This document shows, piece after piece, positions 9,258-38,516 of a stretch of 64,000 nt of DNA. The notes beneath the pieces were generated by a model. It was not told the origin of the DNA. It saw nothing but the letters and a program-made list of their open reading frames with translations, and did no database searches. The first letter of the stretch is position 1. Each line of letters starts with the position of its first letter. The stretch comes from Escherichia phage HP3. Made by a program: the position numbers and the translations under genes. The stretch is taken from sequence record NC_041919.1; one strand, 5' to 3'.

Positions 9258-9287
9258 GTTTACTTTAAGATTTAGATAGTATATAAT
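9258..9287 (+). promoter_or_regulatory. T4-type early promoter for rnh, back-to-back with the gene 34 late promoter
   Basis: GTTTAC 9258-9263, 18 nt spacer, TATAAT 9282-9287. Confidence 0.45.
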
Positions 9288-13489: not shown

Positions 13490-13876
13490 ATGGAAATCGG
13501 CAAAAAATACGAGTTAAATCCACATCGTATTAAATCTTTCATTGATATTAGTTCATCAAATGCTAGTATGGTCGGCATCATTCAAGAAAATGGCGGTTGG
13601 TTTGAAGTTAAATCAATATCAAGTTTAGATGGCTTTGATTATGTAACCGAAATCATTTGTGCTAATGGTGAAATCTATAATGATGATGGTATGGGTGATG
13701 ATTATTTTGAACTTAGTGAAGAAGAGTTTTATTGTTTCCGCGAATATAAAGAACCGACTTCTGAAGAGGATGAAGTCAAAGACAAGGTTTCTGGCGTAAC
13801 AAAAATTCACTGCATTGTTGACGAAAACAATGCAGATGAAATCATTGAACTTTTGCGAAAAACTTTCAAAAAGTAG
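13490..13876 (+). CDS. hypothetical early protein (frd.2 position)
   Basis: 128 aa from ATG 13490 preceded by GAGGA; acidic C-terminal part. Confidence 0.5.
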   Translation: MEIGKKYELNPHRIKSFIDISSSNASMVGIIQENGGWFEVKSISSLDGFDYVTEIICANGEIYNDDGMGDDYFELSEEEFYCFREYKEPTSEEDEVKDKVSGVTKIHCIVDENNADEIIELLRKTFKK

Positions 13877-13905
13877 TTTACATCAGGGTAGTAGTGTGAT
13901 ACTAT
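13876..13905 (+). promoter_or_regulatory. T4-type early promoter with flanking imperfect inverted repeat
   Basis: GTTTAC 13876-13881, 17-18 nt spacer, TGATACTAT -10; GGGTAGTAG...CTATTACCC inverted repeat brackets the -10. Confidence 0.45.
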
Positions 13906-13935
13906 TACCCTATCAAAACTAATGGAGAAAAGAAA

Positions 13936-15507: not shown

Positions 15508-16056
15508 ATGAAACAATACCAAGATTTAATTAAAGACATTTTTGAAAATGGCTATGAAACTGATGACCGAACGGGCACAGGAACAATTGCTTTGTTCGGT
15601 ACTAAATTACGCTGGGATTTAACTAAAGGTTTTCCTGCAGTAACAACTAAGAAGCTCGCCTGGAAAGCTTGCATTGCTGAGCTACTTTGGTTTTTATCAG
15701 GAAGCACAAATGTCAATGATTTACGATTAATTCAGCATGATTCGTTAATCCAAGGCAAAACAGTTTGGGATGAAAATTACGAAAATCAGGCAAAAGATTT
15801 AGGATACCATAGTGGTGAACTTGGCCCAATTTATGGAAAACAGTGGCGCGATTTTGGCGGTGTAGACCAAATTATAGAAGTTATTGATCGTATTAAAAAA
15901 CTACCAAGTGATAGGCGTCAAATTGTTTCTGCGTGGAATCCAGCTGAACTTAAATATATGGCATTACCACCTTGTCATATGTTCTATCAGTTTAATGTGC
16001 GTAATGGTTATCTTGATTTACAATGGTATCAACGCAGTGTAGATGTTTTCTTGGGT
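15508..16056 (+). CDS. td: thymidylate synthase, exon 1
   Basis: 183 codons MKQYQDLIKDIFENGYETDDRTGTGT...QRSVDVFLG; reading frame broken by an in-frame TAA at the 5' splice site after ...TTGGGT. Confidence 0.9.
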
Positions 16057-16376
16057 TAATTGAGGCCTAGGTATAAGGTGACTTATACTTGTAATCTATC
16101 TAAACGGGGGACCTCTCTAGTAGACAATCCCGTGCTAAATTGTAGGACTACCCTTTAATAATTTCATCAGGATTAGTTACTTACCGTGTAAAATCTGATA
16201 AATGGAATTGGTTCTACATAAATGCCTAACGACTATCCCTTTGGGGAGTAGGGTCAAGTGACTCGAAACGATAGACAACTTGCTTTAACAAGTTGAAGAT
16301 ATAGTCTGATCTGCATGGTGACATGCAGCTGGATATAATTCCGGGGTAAGATTAACGACCTTATCTGAACATAATG
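16057..16376 (+). ncRNA. group I self-splicing intron in td, lacking a homing endonuclease ORF
   Basis: Starts TAATTGAGGCC..., ends ...CTGAACATAATG with terminal G; conserved td-intron core segments (GGTGACTTATACTTGTAATCTATCTAAACGGGG, CCCTTTGGGGAGTAGGGTCAAGTGACTCGAAACGATAGACAACTTGC, CATGGTGACATGCAGCTGGATATAATTCCGGGGTAAGATTAACGACC); 320 nt, no ORF >= 60 aa in any frame. Confidence 0.85.
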
Positions 16377-20767: not shown

Positions 20768-22355
<1,588 letters not shown>

Positions 22356-22358
22356 GCT

Positions 22359-22388
22359 GTTTACAAGTCCCTCGTGTTGTGTTATAGT
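22359..22388 (+). promoter_or_regulatory. T4-type early promoter (copy A of a repeated promoter/leader cassette)
   Basis: GTTTAC 22359-22364, 18 nt spacer, TGTTATAGT -10; leader continues to GAGGA and ATG. Confidence 0.55.
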
Positions 22389-22416
22389 AGTCTTACTGAC
22401 ATAACATGAGGACTTT

Positions 22417-22923
22417 ATGATGGATTTGCAGCTTATTACTACTGAAATGGTCGTTAAAGCATACGGTGATACTACAGATGGGATTTCTGTATTTAAAGGA
22501 AATCGTCGAGTTGGATATATCACCGATCTTAAGAAAGATTTAGCTAAGCAAGTCAAGCGGAAAACGACCATTAAAGAATATCGAAATCGTCGTCTTGAGC
22601 AAGCCCGTGATATGCTTCCTGATGCGGTTGAGGAGATGAAAGTCTTTTTAGAAAATCAGCTTGCGAAATATGATTGCGATGTGTTCATTAATCAGACTCA
22701 ACCTAATGTTCATATTAACAACTGTAAATGCTATATCATCGTTAATCCTTTAACGGGAAAACATCGTCTTGGAATTAGTAATCCAAATCGTAGCGCATCG
22801 GATATGGCAGAAGATGTTGAGGCATGCTTTAAAATTTCTAAATCTCCGGCTGAACATCATATTTTAATTAACGGTCTTTCTCAAGACGATATTATAGAGG
22901 TTATTAAAACTTTATGCAATTAA
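22417..22923 (+). CDS. alc: probable Alc (host transcription shut-off on cytosine DNA)
   Basis: 167-168 aa, matching the length of T4 Alc, at the expected place between 63 and the pseT region; sequence not independently recalled. Confidence 0.5.
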   Translation: MMDLQLITTEMVVKAYGDTTDGISVFKGNRRVGYITDLKKDLAKQVKRKTTIKEYRNRRLEQARDMLPDAVEEMKVFLENQLAKYDCDVFINQTQPNVHINNCKCYIIVNPLTGKHRLGISNPNRSASDMAEDVEACFKISKSPAEHHILINGLSQDDIIEVIKTLCN

Positions 22924-25679: not shown

Positions 25680-25718
25680 GTTTACTTTACGGTAGAGTTG
25701 TGATATTATAGCTCTACC
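25680..25718 (+). promoter_or_regulatory. T4-type early promoter embedded in a perfect inverted repeat
   Basis: GTTTAC 25680-25685, 17 nt spacer, TGATATTAT -10; GGTAGAG (25691-25697) and CTCTACC (25712-25718) bracket the -10. Confidence 0.5.
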
Positions 25719-25739
25719 AAAACAAATGAGGAAATTGAA

Positions 25740-28987: not shown

Positions 28988-29164
28988 ATGGCAAAACAAG
29001 CTAAAGCAAAGAAAGCAGTTGAAAAGAAAGTTGGTGATTCTAAACGCGCTGGCTACAAGCGTGGGTCGAACTCTCGTATCAATCAAACTGTTGAGAAGAT
29101 CATGCGCCGAGCACGTGCGGTTCTTCGAGATGATGCTTCTCGTTTTGGTAAGCAGAAAGCATAA
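28988..29164 (+). CDS. hypothetical small basic protein
   Basis: 58 aa from ATG 28988 (ORF track starts at 28946); Lys/Arg-rich; followed by a strong terminator. Confidence 0.45.
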   Translation: MAKQAKAKKAVEKKVGDSKRAGYKRGSNSRINQTVEKIMRRARAVLRDDASRFGKQKA

Positions 29165-29169
29165 GTTGA

Positions 29170-29194
29170 GGACTCCTTCGGGAGTCCTTTTTTA
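29170..29194 (+). terminator. rho-independent terminator
   Basis: GGACTCC-ttcg-GGAGTCC hairpin followed by TTTTTTATTTT. Confidence 0.8.
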
Positions 29195-29207
29195 TTTTCC
29201 AAAGATT

Positions 29208-29240
29208 GCATAAAGTTGTTTACAGTATGGTTCCTTTGTG
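29208..29240 (+). promoter_or_regulatory. T4-type early promoter
   Basis: GTTTAC 29208-29213, 17 nt spacer, TGATAGTATTAT -10; imperfect inverted repeat CCTTTGTG...CACAAACAAAGG around it. Confidence 0.5.
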
Positions 29241-29274
29241 ATAGTATTATCTTACACAAACAAAGGAGAATAAA

Positions 29275-29609: not shown

Positions 29610-29648
29610 GTTTACTTTGGTACAGGATATGATATTATATACCTGTAC
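29610..29648 (+). promoter_or_regulatory. T4-type early promoter embedded in a perfect inverted repeat
   Basis: GTTTAC 29610-29615, 17 nt spacer, TGATATTAT -10; GGTACAGG and CCTGTACC bracket the -10. Confidence 0.5.
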
Positions 29649-29674
29649 CGCAATTAAACATCTTGGAGAATAAA

Positions 29675-33969: not shown

Positions 33970-33985
33970 AGGCCTTCGGGCCTTT
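33968..33985 (+). terminator. rho-independent terminator
   Basis: AAAGGCC-ttcg-GGCCTTT hairpin with T-rich tail. Confidence 0.55.
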
Positions 33986-33990
33986 AATTT

Positions 33991-33998
33991 TATAAATA
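33991..33998 (+). promoter_or_regulatory. late promoter for alt
   Basis: Exact TATAAATA, 24 nt upstream of the alt ATG, with GAGAGG Shine-Dalgarno between. Confidence 0.65.
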
Positions 33999-34021
33999 GA
34001 ATAAACACTAGAGAGGCTATG

Positions 34022-36076
34022 ATGGAACTTATTACAGAATTATTTGACGAAGATACTACTCTTCCGATTACAAACTTAAATCCAAAGAAGAAAATACCGC
34101 AAATTTTTTCAGTTCATGTTGATGATGCAATTGAACAACCAGGCTTTCGTTTATGTACCTATACATCTGGAGGTGATACTAATCGCGATTTAAAAATGGG
34201 CGATAAAATGATGCATATTGTTCCTTTTACATTAACTGCTAAAGGTTCAATTGCTAAATTAAAAGGTCTTGGTCCAAGCCCAATTAATTATATCAATTCA
34301 GTTTTTACTGTTGCAATGCAAACAATGCGTCAGTATAAAATTGATGCTTGTATGCTTCGTATTCTTAAGTCTAAAACCGCTGGTCAAGCTCGACAAATTC
34401 AAGTTATTGCTGATAGACTTATCCGTAGTCGTTCAGGTGGCAGATACGTCCTTCTTAAGGAACTCTGGGATTATGATAAAAAGTATGCATATATTCTTAT
34501 ACATCGCAAAAATGTATCACTAGAAGACATTCCAGGAGTTCCGGAAATTAGTACCGAGCTCTTTACTAAAGTTGAATCGAAGGTCGGTGATGTTTATATC
34601 AATAAAGATACCGGAGCTCAAGTAACCAAAAATGAGGCAATTGCAGCATCTATTGCACAAGAAAATGATAAACGTTCTGACCAAGCTGTAATCGTTAAAG
34701 TTAAAATTTCCCGTAGAGCAATTGCACAAAGTCAGTCATTGGAATCTTCTAGATTTGAAACACCGATGTTTCAAAAATTTGAGGCTTCAGCGGCAGAATT
34801 AAATAAACCAGCGGACGCGCCTTTAATTTCTGATTCTAATGAATTAACGGTAATTTCTACTTCAGGATTTGCACTAGAGAATGCTCTTAGCAGTGTTACA
34901 GCTGGGATGGCATTCAGAGAAGCTTCTATAATTCCTGAAGATAAAGAATCCATTATTAATGCAGAAATAAAAAATAAAGCTTTAGAAAAATTACGAAAAG
35001 AATCTATTACTTCAATAAAAACTTTAGAAACTATTGCTTCTATCGTCGATGATACTTTAGAAAAATATAAAGGTGCTTGGTTTGAAAGAAATATTAACAA
35101 ACATTCGCATTTAAATCAAGATGCTGCGAATGAGTTAGTACAAAATTCTTGGAATGCAATAAAAACAAAGATTATTCGAAGAGAATTGCGTGGATATGCT
35201 CTTACCGCTGGATGGTCACTACATCCTATAGTCGAAAATAAAGATTCATCTAAATACACACCAGCACAAAAACGCGGAATTCGTGAATACGTAGGTTCAG
35301 GATATGTAGACATAAATAATGCTCTTTTGGGATTATATAATCCAGATGAGCGTACAAGTATTTTGACAGCATCTGACATAGAAAAAGCTATTGATAATTT
35401 AGATTCAGCCTTTAAAAATGGTGATCGATTGCCAAAAGGTATTACTTTATATCGTTCACAGCGAATGTTACCTTCAATATATGAAGCATTGGTAAAAAAT
35501 CGAGTTTTTTATTTTAGAAATTTTGTATCAACATCATTATATCCAAACATTTTTGGTACTTGGATGACTGATTCAGCTGTTGGTGTTTTACCAGATGAAA
35601 AGCGTCTAAACATTTCTATCGATAAAAATGATGAAGGGCTTGTTAATTCTAGCGATAATTTAGTCGGAATTGGATGGGTTATTACTGGGGCTGATAAAGT
35701 CAATGTTGTTTTACCCGGTGGAAGTTTAGCGCCTTCAAATGAAATGGAAGTTATTTTGCCACGTGGATTAATGGTCAAAGTTAATAAAATAACTGATGCA
35801 TCTTACAATGATGGAACAGTTAAAACTAACAACAAGCTTATTCAAGCTGAAGTTATGACCACGGAAGAGCTCACCGAATCGGTAATCTATGACGGAGACC
35901 ATTTAATGGAAACTGGTGAATTGGTTGCAATGACAGGTGATATTGAAGTAGAAGACAGAGTTGACTTTGCATCATTTGTTTCATCAAATGTTAAACAGAA
36001 AGTAGAATCATCTCTTGGAATTATTGCGTCTTGTATAGATATTGCAAACATGCCTTACAAGTTCGTTCAAGGATAA
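34022..36076 (+). CDS. alt: Alt ADP-ribosyltransferase (capsid-packaged, injected)
   Basis: 684 aa from second ATG; MELITELFDEDTTLPITNL...; C-terminal motifs LYRSQR, FVSTSLYP, EVILPRG consistent with an R-S-E catalytic triad. Confidence 0.9.
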   Translation: MELITELFDEDTTLPITNLNPKKKIPQIFSVHVDDAIEQPGFRLCTYTSGGDTNRDLKMGDKMMHIVPFTLTAKGSIAKLKGLGPSPINYINSVFTVAMQTMRQYKIDACMLRILKSKTAGQARQIQVIADRLIRSRSGGRYVLLKELWDYDKKYAYILIHRKNVSLEDIPGVPEISTELFTKVESKVGDVYINKDTGAQVTKNEAIAASIAQENDKRSDQAVIVKVKISRRAIAQSQSLESSRFETPMFQKFEASAAELNKPADAPLISDSNELTVISTSGFALENALSSVTAGMAFREASIIPEDKESIINAEIKNKALEKLRKESITSIKTLETIASIVDDTLEKYKGAWFERNINKHSHLNQDAANELVQNSWNAIKTKIIRRELRGYALTAGWSLHPIVENKDSSKYTPAQKRGIREYVGSGYVDINNALLGLYNPDERTSILTASDIEKAIDNLDSAFKNGDRLPKGITLYRSQRMLPSIYEALVKNRVFYFRNFVSTSLYPNIFGTWMTDSAVGVLPDEKRLNISIDKNDEGLVNSSDNLVGIGWVITGADKVNVVLPGGSLAPSNEMEVILPRGLMVKVNKITDASYNDGTVKTNNKLIQAEVMTTEELTESVIYDGDHLMETGELVAMTGDIEVEDRVDFASFVSSNVKQKVESSLGIIASCIDIANMPYKFVQG

Positions 36077-36079
36077 ATC

Positions 36080-38137
36080 ATGGAACTTATTACAGAATTA
36101 TTTGACGGCGCTTCGGCGCCGGTTGTTAACTTAAATCCTAAGCATAAAATACCACAAATTTTTGCTATTCAAGCCGGCGAAGAAAGCGTGCTTCCTGGAT
36201 TTAGATTTTGTACATACACCTCTGGTGGTGATACGAATAAAAACGTTAAGCCAGGCGATAAAATGATGCATATCGTAATGATAGGTGTTAATGAGAAACT
36301 ATCATTAGTTAAGCTTAAAAACTTGGGTGGAAATCCAATTGGTGTCATTAATGCCGTTTTTGATACTGCTCTTCAAACAATGAAACAGTATAAAATCGAC
36401 GCATGCCTATTCCGCGTACTAAAAAGTAAAACAAATGGCGCAGCTCGTCAAATGCAAGTTATTGCTGACCGTTTAGTACGTACTAAAGGAGCAGGTCGAT
36501 ATGTTCTTTTAAAGGAAATCTGGGACTATGATAAGAAATATGCATATATTATGGTTTACCGTAAAAATGCCAATTTAGAAGACATTCCAGGTGTACCTCC
36601 TATTTCAACTGAGTTATTCACAAAAGTTGAATCAAAGGTCGGTGATGTTTATGTAGACGTTAAAACAGGAAATGCTGTTCCTAAAGCTGTTGCTGTTGCT
36701 GCTTCTATTGCTTTAGAAAATGATAAGCGCACGGACCAAGCTGTTATTCAGAAAACTAAAATTAGTCGTCGATTAGCAGCACAAGCTCAATATTCTACTG
36801 TTGATGCTTCACTTCAGGGTGATAGCTTCGCTGCTAAGAAATATCAAGAGTTTGAATCTAAAGTTCCGGTATATAAAGCAGAAGGACCAATGAACTCTGG
36901 CGTTATTCAGATTGGTTCAAACTTCAGCAAAGGAGCTATCGGTGGTATGAGAAGTGCTTCTCGTTTTAAATCTAACGATTATGAACTAGAAAGCTTCCGA
37001 AATCATATTGCATTAGCCCATGCACGTTTACGTGATCCATCTATCAAGTTGCAGAGCGATATAACATATCAAGGTTCTCAAGAATATTTAAAGAATAAAG
37101 AATTCTTTGATTATAAAACTGATAAAATTTTAAGCGATCTTGCTGATATTAATATTTCTAATAGCTTTGATGTTATTAAGAAAATTATTAATGATTTAGT
37201 TAAAGGTTCTAAAACCACACCAGATGAAAAGACAGCTATTATTCAATTTGTAATGAATGGCATTTATAAATTGATTAATGAATCTGCTGCCCAGGCATAT
37301 GAATACGCAAGCACCGAAGTAGCTCCAAAAGGACTGACTCAGGCTGAATCTGATGTAATTGAAGATTATTGTGCAGATTCATATGTTGAAATGAACTCGT
37401 TCCTTTTGGGTAAACCAGATTCTACCCGTGAAGAATACATGGAACGAGCTATTAAGCACATCGAGACGTTAGATTCTGCCTTTGCCAAAGGATCAGTTCT
37501 TCCTCCAGGAACTACACTTTACCGTGGGCAAGAAGTTACCTTTAAAACTTTGCGTCATAACATTGAAAATAAAATGTTCTATTTCAAGAACTTCGTATCC
37601 ACATCGCTTAAACCAAATATCTTCGGTGAGCATGGTAAAAACTATATGGCTCTAGATGATTCCGGCGCAGTATTTTCTGGTGAAGGAGAAGGTTCCGTTG
37701 ATGCAGAAGATTTGATGCATATGGGTAGTCATTCTACATATGCTAATGAAGATGCAGAAACTAGCGTGGGTATGGTAATTAAAGGAGCTGAGCGAATCAA
37801 AGTTATCGTTCCAGGTCATTTATCAGGATTTCCATCAGAAGCTGAAGTTATTCTACCACGTGGAATTTTACTGAAGATTAATAAAGTAAGTACGTACTTT
37901 ATGAAAGAAACTGCTTATAACAAGTATCTAATCGAAGGTACAATCGTTCCTCCTTCTGAACAATTAGAAGAATCAGTATATGATGGAGACCATCTAATGG
38001 AAACTGGTGAAGTTCGTCCAATGGCTGGATTTAATCAATTCCTTGTAGAAGAATCAAAAGAAGAGGAAAATGAAGTTTCTCAAATCTTGACTTCTTTGGT
38101 TAACATCAACGGAATGTCTAAAAAGTTCAAAATGTAG
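36080..38137 (+). CDS. second Alt-like ADP-ribosyltransferase paralog
   Basis: 685 aa; N-terminal ~220 aa closely similar to Alt (MELITELFDGASAPVVNL...), divergent middle, conserved C-terminal motifs LYRGQE, FVSTSLKP, EVILPRG; starts 4 nt after alt stop. Confidence 0.8.
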   Translation: MELITELFDGASAPVVNLNPKHKIPQIFAIQAGEESVLPGFRFCTYTSGGDTNKNVKPGDKMMHIVMIGVNEKLSLVKLKNLGGNPIGVINAVFDTALQTMKQYKIDACLFRVLKSKTNGAARQMQVIADRLVRTKGAGRYVLLKEIWDYDKKYAYIMVYRKNANLEDIPGVPPISTELFTKVESKVGDVYVDVKTGNAVPKAVAVAASIALENDKRTDQAVIQKTKISRRLAAQAQYSTVDASLQGDSFAAKKYQEFESKVPVYKAEGPMNSGVIQIGSNFSKGAIGGMRSASRFKSNDYELESFRNHIALAHARLRDPSIKLQSDITYQGSQEYLKNKEFFDYKTDKILSDLADINISNSFDVIKKIINDLVKGSKTTPDEKTAIIQFVMNGIYKLINESAAQAYEYASTEVAPKGLTQAESDVIEDYCADSYVEMNSFLLGKPDSTREEYMERAIKHIETLDSAFAKGSVLPPGTTLYRGQEVTFKTLRHNIENKMFYFKNFVSTSLKPNIFGEHGKNYMALDDSGAVFSGEGEGSVDAEDLMHMGSHSTYANEDAETSVGMVIKGAERIKVIVPGHLSGFPSEAEVILPRGILLKINKVSTYFMKETAYNKYLIEGTIVPPSEQLEESVYDGDHLMETGEVRPMAGFNQFLVEESKEEENEVSQILTSLVNINGMSKKFKM

Positions 38138-38166
38138 TTTACAAGTTCCTTATGTTGTGTTATAGT
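38137..38166 (+). promoter_or_regulatory. T4-type early promoter (copy B of repeated promoter/leader cassette)
   Basis: GTTTAC 38137-38142, 18 nt spacer, TGTTATAGT -10; near-identical to 22359-22412. Confidence 0.55.
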
Positions 38167-38197
38167 AGTCTTACTGACATAACATGAGGAACACAAA

Positions 38198-38488
38198 ATG
38201 AAATCTTCTTTGCGCTTTTTAGGTCAAGAACTTGTAGTTGAAGGCGTTATTCCTGCTGATAATGCTTTTAATGAAGCAGTTTACGATGAATTTATTAAAA
38301 TTTTTGGAACAGATAAAAAGTTCGGAATTTTTCCTTCTGAAAATTTTTCAAAGCCAGAACAGACTGAAAGCATTTTCCAAGGTGTAGTAACAGGTAAATT
38401 TGAGTCAGAAGCTCCGGTAAAAATTGAAGTTTATATTGAAGACAGTTTAGTTGCTTCAGTTGCTGCTTTTATTTCATTCCGTAAATAA
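38198..38488 (+). CDS. hypothetical protein
   Basis: 96 aa; first ORF after the early promoter cassette. Confidence 0.5.
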   Translation: MKSSLRFLGQELVVEGVIPADNAFNEAVYDEFIKIFGTDKKFGIFPSENFSKPEQTESIFQGVVTGKFESEAPVKIEVYIEDSLVASVAAFISFRK

Positions 38489-38493
38489 AAATA

Positions 38494-38511
38494 TGGGGAC
38501 CGAAAGGTCCC
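38494..38511. terminator. bidirectional rho-independent terminator between convergent ORF 38198 and gene 54
   Basis: GGGGACC-gaaa-GGTCCCC hairpin; T-rich on the minus-strand side, moderately T-rich on the plus side. Confidence 0.7.
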
Positions 38512-38516
38512 CATTG

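Follow-up and report, generated by a model that had tools for sequence, protein, structure and literature searches.

A twice-used early-promoter and leader cassette before alc and alt.-3 in Escherichia phage HP3, and its predicted hairpin over the ribosome-binding site

Why should two unrelated early genes of a T4-type phage, lying 16 kb apart, be preceded by almost the same 54 nucleotides? The question is raised by a stretch of 64,000 nucleotides from Escherichia phage HP3 (NC_041919.1; hereafter the window, meaning this whole stretch), which is 100% identical in sequence to Escherichia phage HP3.1 (OK275722.1), a Tequatrovirus, and whose plus strand is the early-gene strand. The repeated element comprises an early promoter and the leader that follows it, and we refer to it as a cassette, with copy A before alc and copy B before alt.-3. 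On balance we think it probable that one and the same T4-type cassette of early promoter and leader is present twice, that its copies make the translation of alc and alt.-3 dependent on where the RNA originates, and that they exchange patches of sequence with each other. The copies are located as follows:

22359 to 22412, plus strand: cassette copy A, in the rnlA/alc intergenic region, running from 3 nt past the rnlA stop codon to the Shine-Dalgarno sequence GAGGA; GTTTACAAGTCCCTCGTGTTGTGTTATAGTAGTCTTACTGACATAACATGAGGA
38137 to 38190, plus strand: cassette copy B, between the second alt gene and alt.-3, its first base (G1) also serving as the final base of the alt stop codon TAG, and its end being the Shine-Dalgarno sequence GAGGA; GTTTACAAGTTCCTTATGTTGTGTTATAGTAGTCTTACTGACATAACATGAGGA

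In an ungapped alignment the two copies agree at 51 of their 54 bases, 38 of them in one exact run, and their likeness ends sharply at both borders. Eight early-promoter-like sites lie on the plus strand of the window (at 9258, 13144, 13876, 22359, 25680, 29218, 29610 and 38137), and when 54-base stretches of these sites, anchored at GTTTAC, were compared pairwise, the 27 other pairs had a mean of 24.7 bases in common (sd 6.1) and a maximum of 40. The canonical T4 early promoter consists of GTTTAC, a spacer of 17-18 bp and TATAAT, with a TG-extended -10 box and upstream A-tracts; ordinary promoters of this kind have no common spacer or leader, whereas the cassette pair differs at 0 to 5 of its 54 positions in the genomes compared. 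T4 early promoters do share GTTTAC, a TGTG before the -10 box, the CTTAC start region, an A/C-rich leader and GAGG, from which it might be argued that a strong early promoter and a consensus ribosome-binding site had come to resemble each other twice with no common origin. This is next to impossible, as a likeness due to consensus or chance is ruled out by the distance between 51 matches and the maximum of 40, and, in addition to the long exact run, the copies are identical at 54 of 54 positions in many genomes, one form recurs exactly in 142 records, and haplotypes involving several sites are common to both loci. Homology of the downstream proteins was also rejected as the source of the similar leaders, Alc (PF17527) and Alt.-3 (DUF5498) having no similarity to each other. 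The original prediction, that a near-identical cassette stands twice before unrelated genes and is more alike than other early promoters are, is thereby borne out.

No third copy was found in the window at up to 14 mismatches, and Rfam returned no match at either cassette (E up to 1). A BLAST search with an 81-base query around copy A found 995 places in 498 Tequatrovirus records, T4 and T2 among them, at two per genome. The cassettes are thus present at the same two loci in approximately 498 Tequatrovirus genomes, and the two copies of T4 differ by one base.

Both copies are T4-type early promoters, as had been proposed, and both are predicted to fold on the plus strand into a hairpin that spans the promoter and the ribosome-binding site:

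22360 to 22388, plus strand: early promoter of copy A, with the -35 box TTTACA at 22360-22365, a 17-bp spacer and the TG-extended -10 box TATAGT at 22383-22388
about 22395, plus strand: predicted start site of copy A, the A of CTTAC, placed from the spacing
22365 to 22415, plus strand: predicted RNA hairpin of copy A, with its 5' arm at 22365-22383 (the promoter spacer), its 3' arm at 22398-22415 and the Shine-Dalgarno sequence at 22408-22412
38138 to 38166, plus strand: early promoter of copy B, in which a 17-bp spacer separates TTTACA from the TG-extended TATAGT at 38161-38166
about 38173, plus strand: putative start site of copy B, the A of CTTAC
38145 to 38192, plus strand: predicted RNA hairpin of copy B, with 17 contiguous pairs, two of them G.U, its 5' arm at 38145-38161, its 3' arm at 38176-38192 and the Shine-Dalgarno sequence at 38186-38190

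In both copies, 10 of the 12 hexamer positions agree with the T4 early promoter consensus, in addition to the TG extension. Copy A is marked as a 'predicted early promoter' in the annotation of phage fPS-65, and copy B as a promoter in phages ASO78A and Lutter.

The duplicated cassette is the strongest inverted repeat, one that its G.U pairs make visible only as a fold of plus-strand RNA. A stem of 17-18 bp in each copy encloses a loop that holds the -10 box as well as the predicted start site; the spacer from the -35 box to the -10 box supplies the 5' arm, and the leader together with the Shine-Dalgarno sequence GAGGA supplies the 3' arm. The plus-strand folds reach -27.3 kcal/mol in copy A (z -5.07) and -25.7 kcal/mol in copy B (z -5.55), compared to -15.4 and -15.7 kcal/mol on the minus strand, and none of 200 shuffles was as stable as either hairpin. 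Such strand asymmetry, based on G.U pairs, points to a structure of the sense-strand RNA rather than of duplex DNA. All three differences between the copies fall in the 5' arm, two of them preserving pairs (C-G to U.G and G.U to A-U) and the third, C11T, suiting the 3' flank of copy B itself. The stems were also considered as intrinsic terminators, an identity that their sequence speaks against, as neither has a U-tract and neither received a terminator-like call.

The predicted consequence for the ribosome-binding site depends on where the RNA begins. In modelled read-through RNA the Shine-Dalgarno sequence has an unpaired probability of 0.00-0.03 across the two copies (0.03 in copy A), and RNAs begun at the cassettes' own promoters, which lack the 5' arm, fold at -4.1 (A) and -2.2 (B) kcal/mol with z close to 0. 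Under the mechanism that we propose, RNA entering from upstream, through middle-mode or read-through transcription of rnlA or through late transcription of alt, would carry both arms and have its ribosome-binding site locked. RNA begun at the cassette's early promoter would start in the loop, lack the 5' arm and be translatable, and Alc and Alt.-3 would be made only while early promoters fire. Judged from the modelled folds and from the strong comparative evidence given below, promoter-selective translation that limits Alc and Alt.-3 synthesis to the early period is the most likely function of the cassettes.

The genes and signals around the two cassettes bear directly on this proposal:

21231 to 22355, plus strand: rnlA (gene 63), the gene upstream of copy A, named after the T4 annotation
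22420 to 22923, plus strand: alc, encoding a host transcription inhibitor and served by copy A (PF17527, E 3e-90)
33971 to 33998, plus strand: terminator-like hairpin and, after it, a late promoter TATAAATA (33991-33998), directly ahead of the first alt gene
36080 to 38137, plus strand: the second alt paralogue, full-length, which lies upstream of copy B
38198 to 38488, plus strand: alt.-3 (DUF5498), served by copy B
38493 to 38514, bidirectional: terminator-like hairpin ATGGGGACC-GAAA-GGTCCCCAT, closing the alt.-3 unit against the convergent late gene 54

A MotA-box-like middle promoter lies ahead of rnlA (TGCTTC and then TACTAT, 21181-21214), and no terminator was found between rnlA and copy A or between alt and copy B. 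The TATAAATA motif at 33991-33998 was read directly in the sequence, and from it we infer late transcription that probably extends across both alt genes and on into alt.-3. This motif occurs 19 times in the whole window compared to 8.9 expected (sd 3.1), mostly on the minus strand beyond 44 kb as expected of the late structural gene block, and a scan of the window placed none in either cassette. Time-resolved omics of T4 assign early RNA and early protein to both alc and alt.-3, class the rnlA protein as late and describe Alt protein as rising late (PMC9697503 supplement). Both cassettes therefore sit at a junction where a later-transcribed gene runs into a strictly early gene, since no terminator intervenes, a middle promoter precedes rnlA and a late promoter precedes alt. 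Alt, encoded upstream of copy B, is a virion protein. The distance from the GAGGA end of the cassettes to the first ATG is 4-7 nt, and an in-frame ATG at 22417 lies ahead of the alc start at 22420. The two alt paralogues of the window are in tandem (34019-36076 and 36080-38137), each of 685 aa and each with an ADP-ribosyltransferase domain; according to the T4 annotation, the second alt copy of that phage has decayed into alt.-1 and alt.-2.

The position of the cassettes immediately after a coding sequence also invites another account, namely translational coupling, in which ribosomes finishing rnlA or alt would open the hairpin and the downstream gene would be translated only along with its upstream neighbour, or else a role in RNA processing or stability, with the hairpin serving as a protective 3' end after cleavage of the leader. 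Such an account gains from the fact that both cassettes start 0-3 nt past the upstream stop codon, and from hairpins elsewhere that do not cover a Shine-Dalgarno sequence and need another role, for example protection of the upstream message. Coupling is nonetheless difficult to reconcile with the geometry, the 5' arm beginning 8-10 nt past the stop and hence, judged from the ribosome footprint, approximately at or beyond the reach of a terminating ribosome; moreover, a stem of -25 kcal/mol is much stronger than coupling usually requires, and the Alc and Alt.-3 proteins are early whereas RnlA and Alt accumulate late. We regard coupling or processing as improbable.

Further evidence for pairing between the spacer and the Shine-Dalgarno region comes from other T4-like phages. 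The region upstream of alc was compared in 14 lineages from 12 genera in an annotated phage collection (IMG/VR, tried as a source of diversity, yielded only 5-6 loci), and 10 of these lineages, among them Tequatrovirus HP3.1 itself and Marfavirus R3_1, have the same architecture of a hairpin clamping the Shine-Dalgarno sequence, built from arms that differ between lineages yet are mutually complementary:

alc leader of Gelderlandvirus: 5' arm CTCCGTTT, 3' arm AAACGGAG
alc leader of Dhakavirus: 5' arm CTCCTCAT, 3' arm ATGAGGAG
alc leader of Karamvirus: 5' arm CTCCATTTGG, 3' arm CCAAATGGAG
alc leader of Marfavirus: 5' arm CCTCGTTTGTT, 3' arm AACAAACGAGG, the second Marfavirus, R3_1, having the same arms as Marfa
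alc leader of Jiaodavirus: 5' arm TCCTCATCAG, 3' arm CTGATGAGGA
alc leader of Bragavirus: 5' arm CCTCTCATTTTTA, 3' arm TGAAAATGAGAGG
alc leader of Winklervirus: 5' arm TCCTCATTTCGTT, 3' arm AACGAAATGAGGA
alc leader of Roskildevirus: similar arms

When each spacer was paired with every leader as a swap control, the cognate duplexes had a mean of -17.6 kcal/mol compared to -9.5 kcal/mol (sd 4.1) for the non-cognate ones, the cognate duplex ranked first in its row in 9 of 12 cases, and none of 20000 permutations of spacers and leaders reached the observed sum. Covariation at alc over approximately 10 genera places it among the better comparative cases for a structure of this kind. The distribution of the arms indicates that the clamp is ancestral for alc and specific to Tequatrovirus for alt.-3.

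Hairpins that sequester a ribosome-binding site and contain a promoter have been described for T4 e, soc, 49, I-TevI/II/III and segB, as well as for mobE of phage Aeh1 (PMC3014915, PMC2988022). Like the e, soc, 49 and I-TevI device, the cassettes are predicted to hold the Shine-Dalgarno sequence in a helix on RNA started upstream, and the predicted start of the internal promoter lies 3' of the 5' arm, so that the cassette's own RNA would lack the 5' strand. They differ in that the internal promoter is an early sigma-70 promoter and not the late TATAAATA, and in that alc and alt.-3 are early genes; the cassettes would shut translation down once the early period is over, instead of switching it on at late times. 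By this analogy, and from the modelled folds, the best reading of the cassettes appears to be the translational device of T4 e, soc and I-TevI in which an early promoter takes the place of the internal late promoter.

How have two copies separated by 16 kb stayed so similar? Among 26 copies compared, cassette positions 41-54 are invariant and the variable sites fall in the 5' arm, the loop and position 40 at the top of the 3' arm. The commonest Tequatrovirus form of the alt.-3 cassette is identical to the alc consensus (the 142 exact records mentioned above), and the HP3.1 form is found in 24. The triple change C11T+C15T+G16A is carried by the alt.-3 copy in HP3.1, in an IMG/VR contig and in SV76 (T2), and it is also carried by the alc copy of OE5505, whose alt.-3 copy has the consensus sequence. 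Similarly, several phages have G29A+G32A in their alt.-3 copy, ZCEC15 has it at both loci, and the alc copy of SV76 carries G32A. As multi-site haplotypes are found at either locus in different phages, the copies appear to exchange patches, and in this respect the original prediction is supported; independent recurrence of such haplotypes at both loci is very unlikely on these sequences, and their sharing is best explained by short-patch ectopic gene conversion between the repeats, which is the simplest account. The exchange may take place within one genome or between co-infecting genomes. It resembles the concerted evolution of dispersed short repeats, with cassette haplotypes at either locus and the same derived pair in both ZCEC15 copies, and differs from it in that the repeat is only 54 bp long and resides in a lytic phage genome. 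Gene conversion over 16 kb would thus keep the two 54-bp repeats nearly identical.

The HP3.1-type 5' arm (TCCTTA) was considered as an adaptation private to alt.-3, a candidate that is weakened by the presence of the same haplotype in the alc copy of OE5505. This arm is more stable in the alt.-3 context (-25.7 vs. -23.0 kcal/mol) and less so in the alc context (-22.7 vs. -27.3 kcal/mol). The consensus 5' arm AAGTCC pairs with GGACTT, an alc-specific flank outside of the repeat, and since this flank is found at alc only, copying from alc to alt.-3 is favoured, as it also is by the architecture. Our proposal is that the architecture is ancestral at alc and that the Tequatrovirus lineage probably acquired a copy of it before alt.-3. 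An early promoter of a third gene has a related sequence: that of ndd.1 in Mosigvirus JS09 (L029, approximately 581-643) agrees with the Tequatrovirus alt.-3 cassette at 40 of 43 bases over the stretch that begins at the -10 box and ends with the start codon, its 5' half being different, and an ndd.1-type match is found in approximately 78 Mosigvirus records. This suggests that promoter halves have been exchanged between non-homologous genes of different genera.

Exchange between copies recalls the promoter-early stem-loop (PeSL) cassettes of T4-type phages, which by definition comprise a stop codon, a stretch rich in A and T, a sigma-70 promoter, a stem-loop and a Shine-Dalgarno sequence (PMC2839356; PMC4122927). 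The stem-loop takes any of five positions, including one in the interval from the -35 to the -10 box or one that overlaps the latter, and G-T pairs were noted (PMC2839356). In both papers the stem is taken to terminate or attenuate transcription and the cassette to drive modular shuffling (PMC2839356, Arbiol et al. 2010; PMC4122927, Comeau et al. 2014), and neither translation nor pairing of the Shine-Dalgarno sequence is mentioned. PeSLs were reported for the PST/T4 pair, with the promoter TTTACW-N17-TAYWAT (PMC4122927). The present cassettes are similar in several respects: they have a strong sigma-70-type early promoter with a spacing of about 17 bp, a stem-loop with G-T pairs that overlaps the promoter and holds the -10 box in its loop (z approximately -5), a position 3 nt after the rnlA stop (copy A) or overlapping the alt stop (copy B) with an end at GAGGA in both cases, and repetition within the genome with recombination between the copies. 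They are different in having only two copies, at fixed syntenic sites outside of the hyperplastic regions, in that no gene module has been inserted, deleted or swapped at either site with the sole exception of an extra open reading frame (ORF) in VR25, and in lacking a terminator signature, the conserved and covarying trait being the pairing of the Shine-Dalgarno sequence.

Could the cassettes then be PeSLs in the sense first proposed, with stems that attenuate or terminate upstream transcription and a portable recombination site that shuffles modules? The anatomy fits the subclass with a stem-loop over the -10 box and G-T pairs (PMC2839356), PeSLs are on record for PST and T4 (PMC4122927), sequence exchange between the copies is demonstrated, and the 3' half of the cassette is common to the promoter of the non-homologous ndd.1 in Mosigvirus JS09. 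In VR25 (Gaprivervirus; L007, 17752-18055), moreover, an extra ORF, gp243, stands at the rnlA/alc junction beside a composite of terminator and promoter, and alc has no promoter of its own. There gp243 is preceded by a G+C-rich terminator-like hairpin (AAGGGG..CCCCTT) with a T-run, in whose loop the -35 box lies. On the other hand, neither cassette stem is followed by a U-tract or called terminator-like, the cassettes are at two fixed loci in approximately 498 genomes, and the flanking genes are syntenic: the order rnlA/alc is kept in 13 of 14 lineages (11 of 12 genera), VR25 being the exception, and alt/alt.-3/54 is kept in 7 of the 7 genera examined. A crossover between the direct repeats would remove 16 kb including genes 30 and 31, and shuffling leaves unaccounted for a 3' arm that contains the Shine-Dalgarno sequence and covaries in 10 lineages. 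The proposed resemblance to PeSL cassettes consequently holds for their anatomy and for recombination between copies and fails for modular shuffling, as gene order is conserved and the cassettes are not at module boundaries; what has moved is the regulatory cassette and not gene modules. We consider the PeSL interpretation as first proposed unlikely.

The remaining early promoters of the window place the duplicated cassette in a wider pattern of hairpins around the -10 box:

13876 to 13935, plus strand: early promoter whose -10 box is enclosed by a hairpin (13885-13895 / 13901-13911) with a 3' arm that stops short of the Shine-Dalgarno sequence
25680 to 25739, plus strand: early promoter, its -10 box flanked by the arms of a hairpin (25691-25704 / 25705-25718), with the perfect core GGTAGAG / CTCTACC and the Shine-Dalgarno sequence uncovered
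29218 to 29274, plus strand: early promoter with the spacer sequence TCCTTTGT (29232-29239) perfectly complementary to the Shine-Dalgarno region ACAAAGGA (29260-29267), z -3.16
29610 to 29674, plus strand: early promoter with perfect hairpin arms GGTACAGG (29619-29626) and CCTGTACC (29642-29649) around the -10 box, z -4.07

Inverted repeats around the -10 box, which the original prediction had listed at four other promoters, are real at 13876, 25680, 29218 and 29610, with two coordinates corrected: the promoter given as 29208 starts at 29218, and the arm given as 29641 starts at 29642. No hairpin brackets the -10 box at 9258 or 13144, and in total the -10 box lies in a hairpin loop at 6 of the 8 early promoters of the window. 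The promoter sequence at 29610 is conserved in RB69, VR25 and IME08. The promoters at 13876-13929 and 25680-25733 have 40 of 54 bases in common and belong to a group with GGTAG...CTACC hairpins around the -10 box and an uncovered Shine-Dalgarno sequence, as do those of JS09 ndd.1 and phiR1-RT alc. Directly ahead of the 29218 promoter, the Rhizobiales sRNA family Atu_C8 gives a weak Rfam match (29120-29203; 31.4 bits compared to a gathering score of 50, E 0.0096) that is most likely due to chance, and a group I intron lies on the plus strand at 16047-16328 in the td/nrd region (Rfam RF00028, 70.3 bits, E 3e-16).

So regular a placement of the -10 box in a loop might also indicate an element acting in DNA, with a cruciform or single-strand hairpin tuning the promoter, for example in early shut-off, or being bound by a protein, and the mechanism that shuts off early promoters is indeed not fully understood (PMC3014915). 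The strands argue otherwise, as the G.U pairs make the structure strongly asymmetric at the cassettes (-27 vs. -15 kcal/mol) and the hairpin at the 25680 promoter is stable chiefly on the plus strand (-17.9 vs. -9.2 kcal/mol), and changes such as C-G to U.G retain pairing solely in the sense-strand RNA. The arm sequences vary among promoters and genera, which speaks against a common protein-binding site, and the use of the Shine-Dalgarno sequence as 3' arm would be left unaccounted for. An element of this sort is very improbable indeed.

Several observations weigh against promoter-selective translation as the function of the cassettes, or against parts of the history proposed for them. The hairpins of three other promoters in the window leave the Shine-Dalgarno sequence uncovered, from which it follows that sequestration is not the sole role of such stems. 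In the modelled alt.-3 RNA begun at its own promoter the Shine-Dalgarno sequence has an unpaired probability of only 0.17, owing to weak pairing (approximately -2 kcal/mol) with early codons. The upper stem pairs generic promoter features, the TGTG before the -10 box with the A/C-rich leader, and part of its stability thus comes free of cost. At alc the clamp is missing in four lineages: RB69 has only a small hairpin within the spacer (ACACC-AAGGAA-GGTGT), phiR1-RT and PEi26 have a hairpin around the -10 box that leaves the Shine-Dalgarno sequence uncovered, and the fourth is VR25. The alt.-3 promoters of six other genera carry no more than a small hairpin in the spacer (CACCACAT-GGA-TGTGGT), and their Shine-Dalgarno sequence is free. 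The clamp is therefore dispensable in some backgrounds. Lastly, the Mosigvirus ndd.1 promoter has TATAGTAGTCCTACTGA-AACATGAGGAACACAAAATG in common with the Tequatrovirus alt.-3 leader, including sequence past the Shine-Dalgarno sequence, which blurs the direction proposed from alc to alt.-3. The small spacer hairpin at alt.-3 recurs elsewhere, in that the spacer of the middle promoter ahead of rnlA (21181-21214) folds as CCACA-TGGAG-TGTGG, and the RB69 alc spacer hairpin is related to the same motif.

To place these promoters in a wider context, early promoters were scanned in seven genomes, and the duplex between spacer and leader reaches z <= -3 against shuffled spacers at 20 of 35. Several of the 35 clamp the Shine-Dalgarno sequence, for example the 29218 promoter of the window and one in Melville and Karamvirus (CCTCCGTTGTAT / ATACAACGGAG), and others bracket only the -10 box. 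The Melville (L006) and Karamvirus (L020) clamp, at approximately 9100 of the reverse-complemented locus, has the arms CCTCCGTTGTAT / ATACAACGGAGA (-22.2 kcal/mol, z approximately -6) and belongs to the early promoter of a different gene in the 30.x region. It is possible, and we put it forward tentatively, that complementarity between spacer and leader is a general design rule of early promoters across T4-like phages. If this rule were true, RNA of their own promoter would be the only RNA from which immediate-early genes are translated, and read-through RNA of the delayed-early, middle and late kinds would yield none of their products. Early promoters would then contribute, by their own design and without need of a protein, to the rapid shut-off of early protein synthesis, itself incompletely explained, and short-patch gene conversion would hold the cassettes uniform and now and then move them before new genes.

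For the two cassettes themselves, the finding concerns the timing of a well-known T4 function. In T4, Alc halts host transcription on DNA that contains cytosine, and its confinement to the first minutes of infection is unexplained in the reviews cited; promoter-dependent translation, if true, would give a simple account of this timing and would extend the classic T4 mechanism of gene e and I-TevI from 'late only' to 'early only'. Exchange between natural repeats of 54 bp backs the core idea of the PeSL proposal, with an outcome that is promoter replacement and homogenisation rather than gene shuffling. For the annotation of T4-like genomes, it would mean that intergenic hairpins at early promoters are to be flagged as translational elements and not as terminators.

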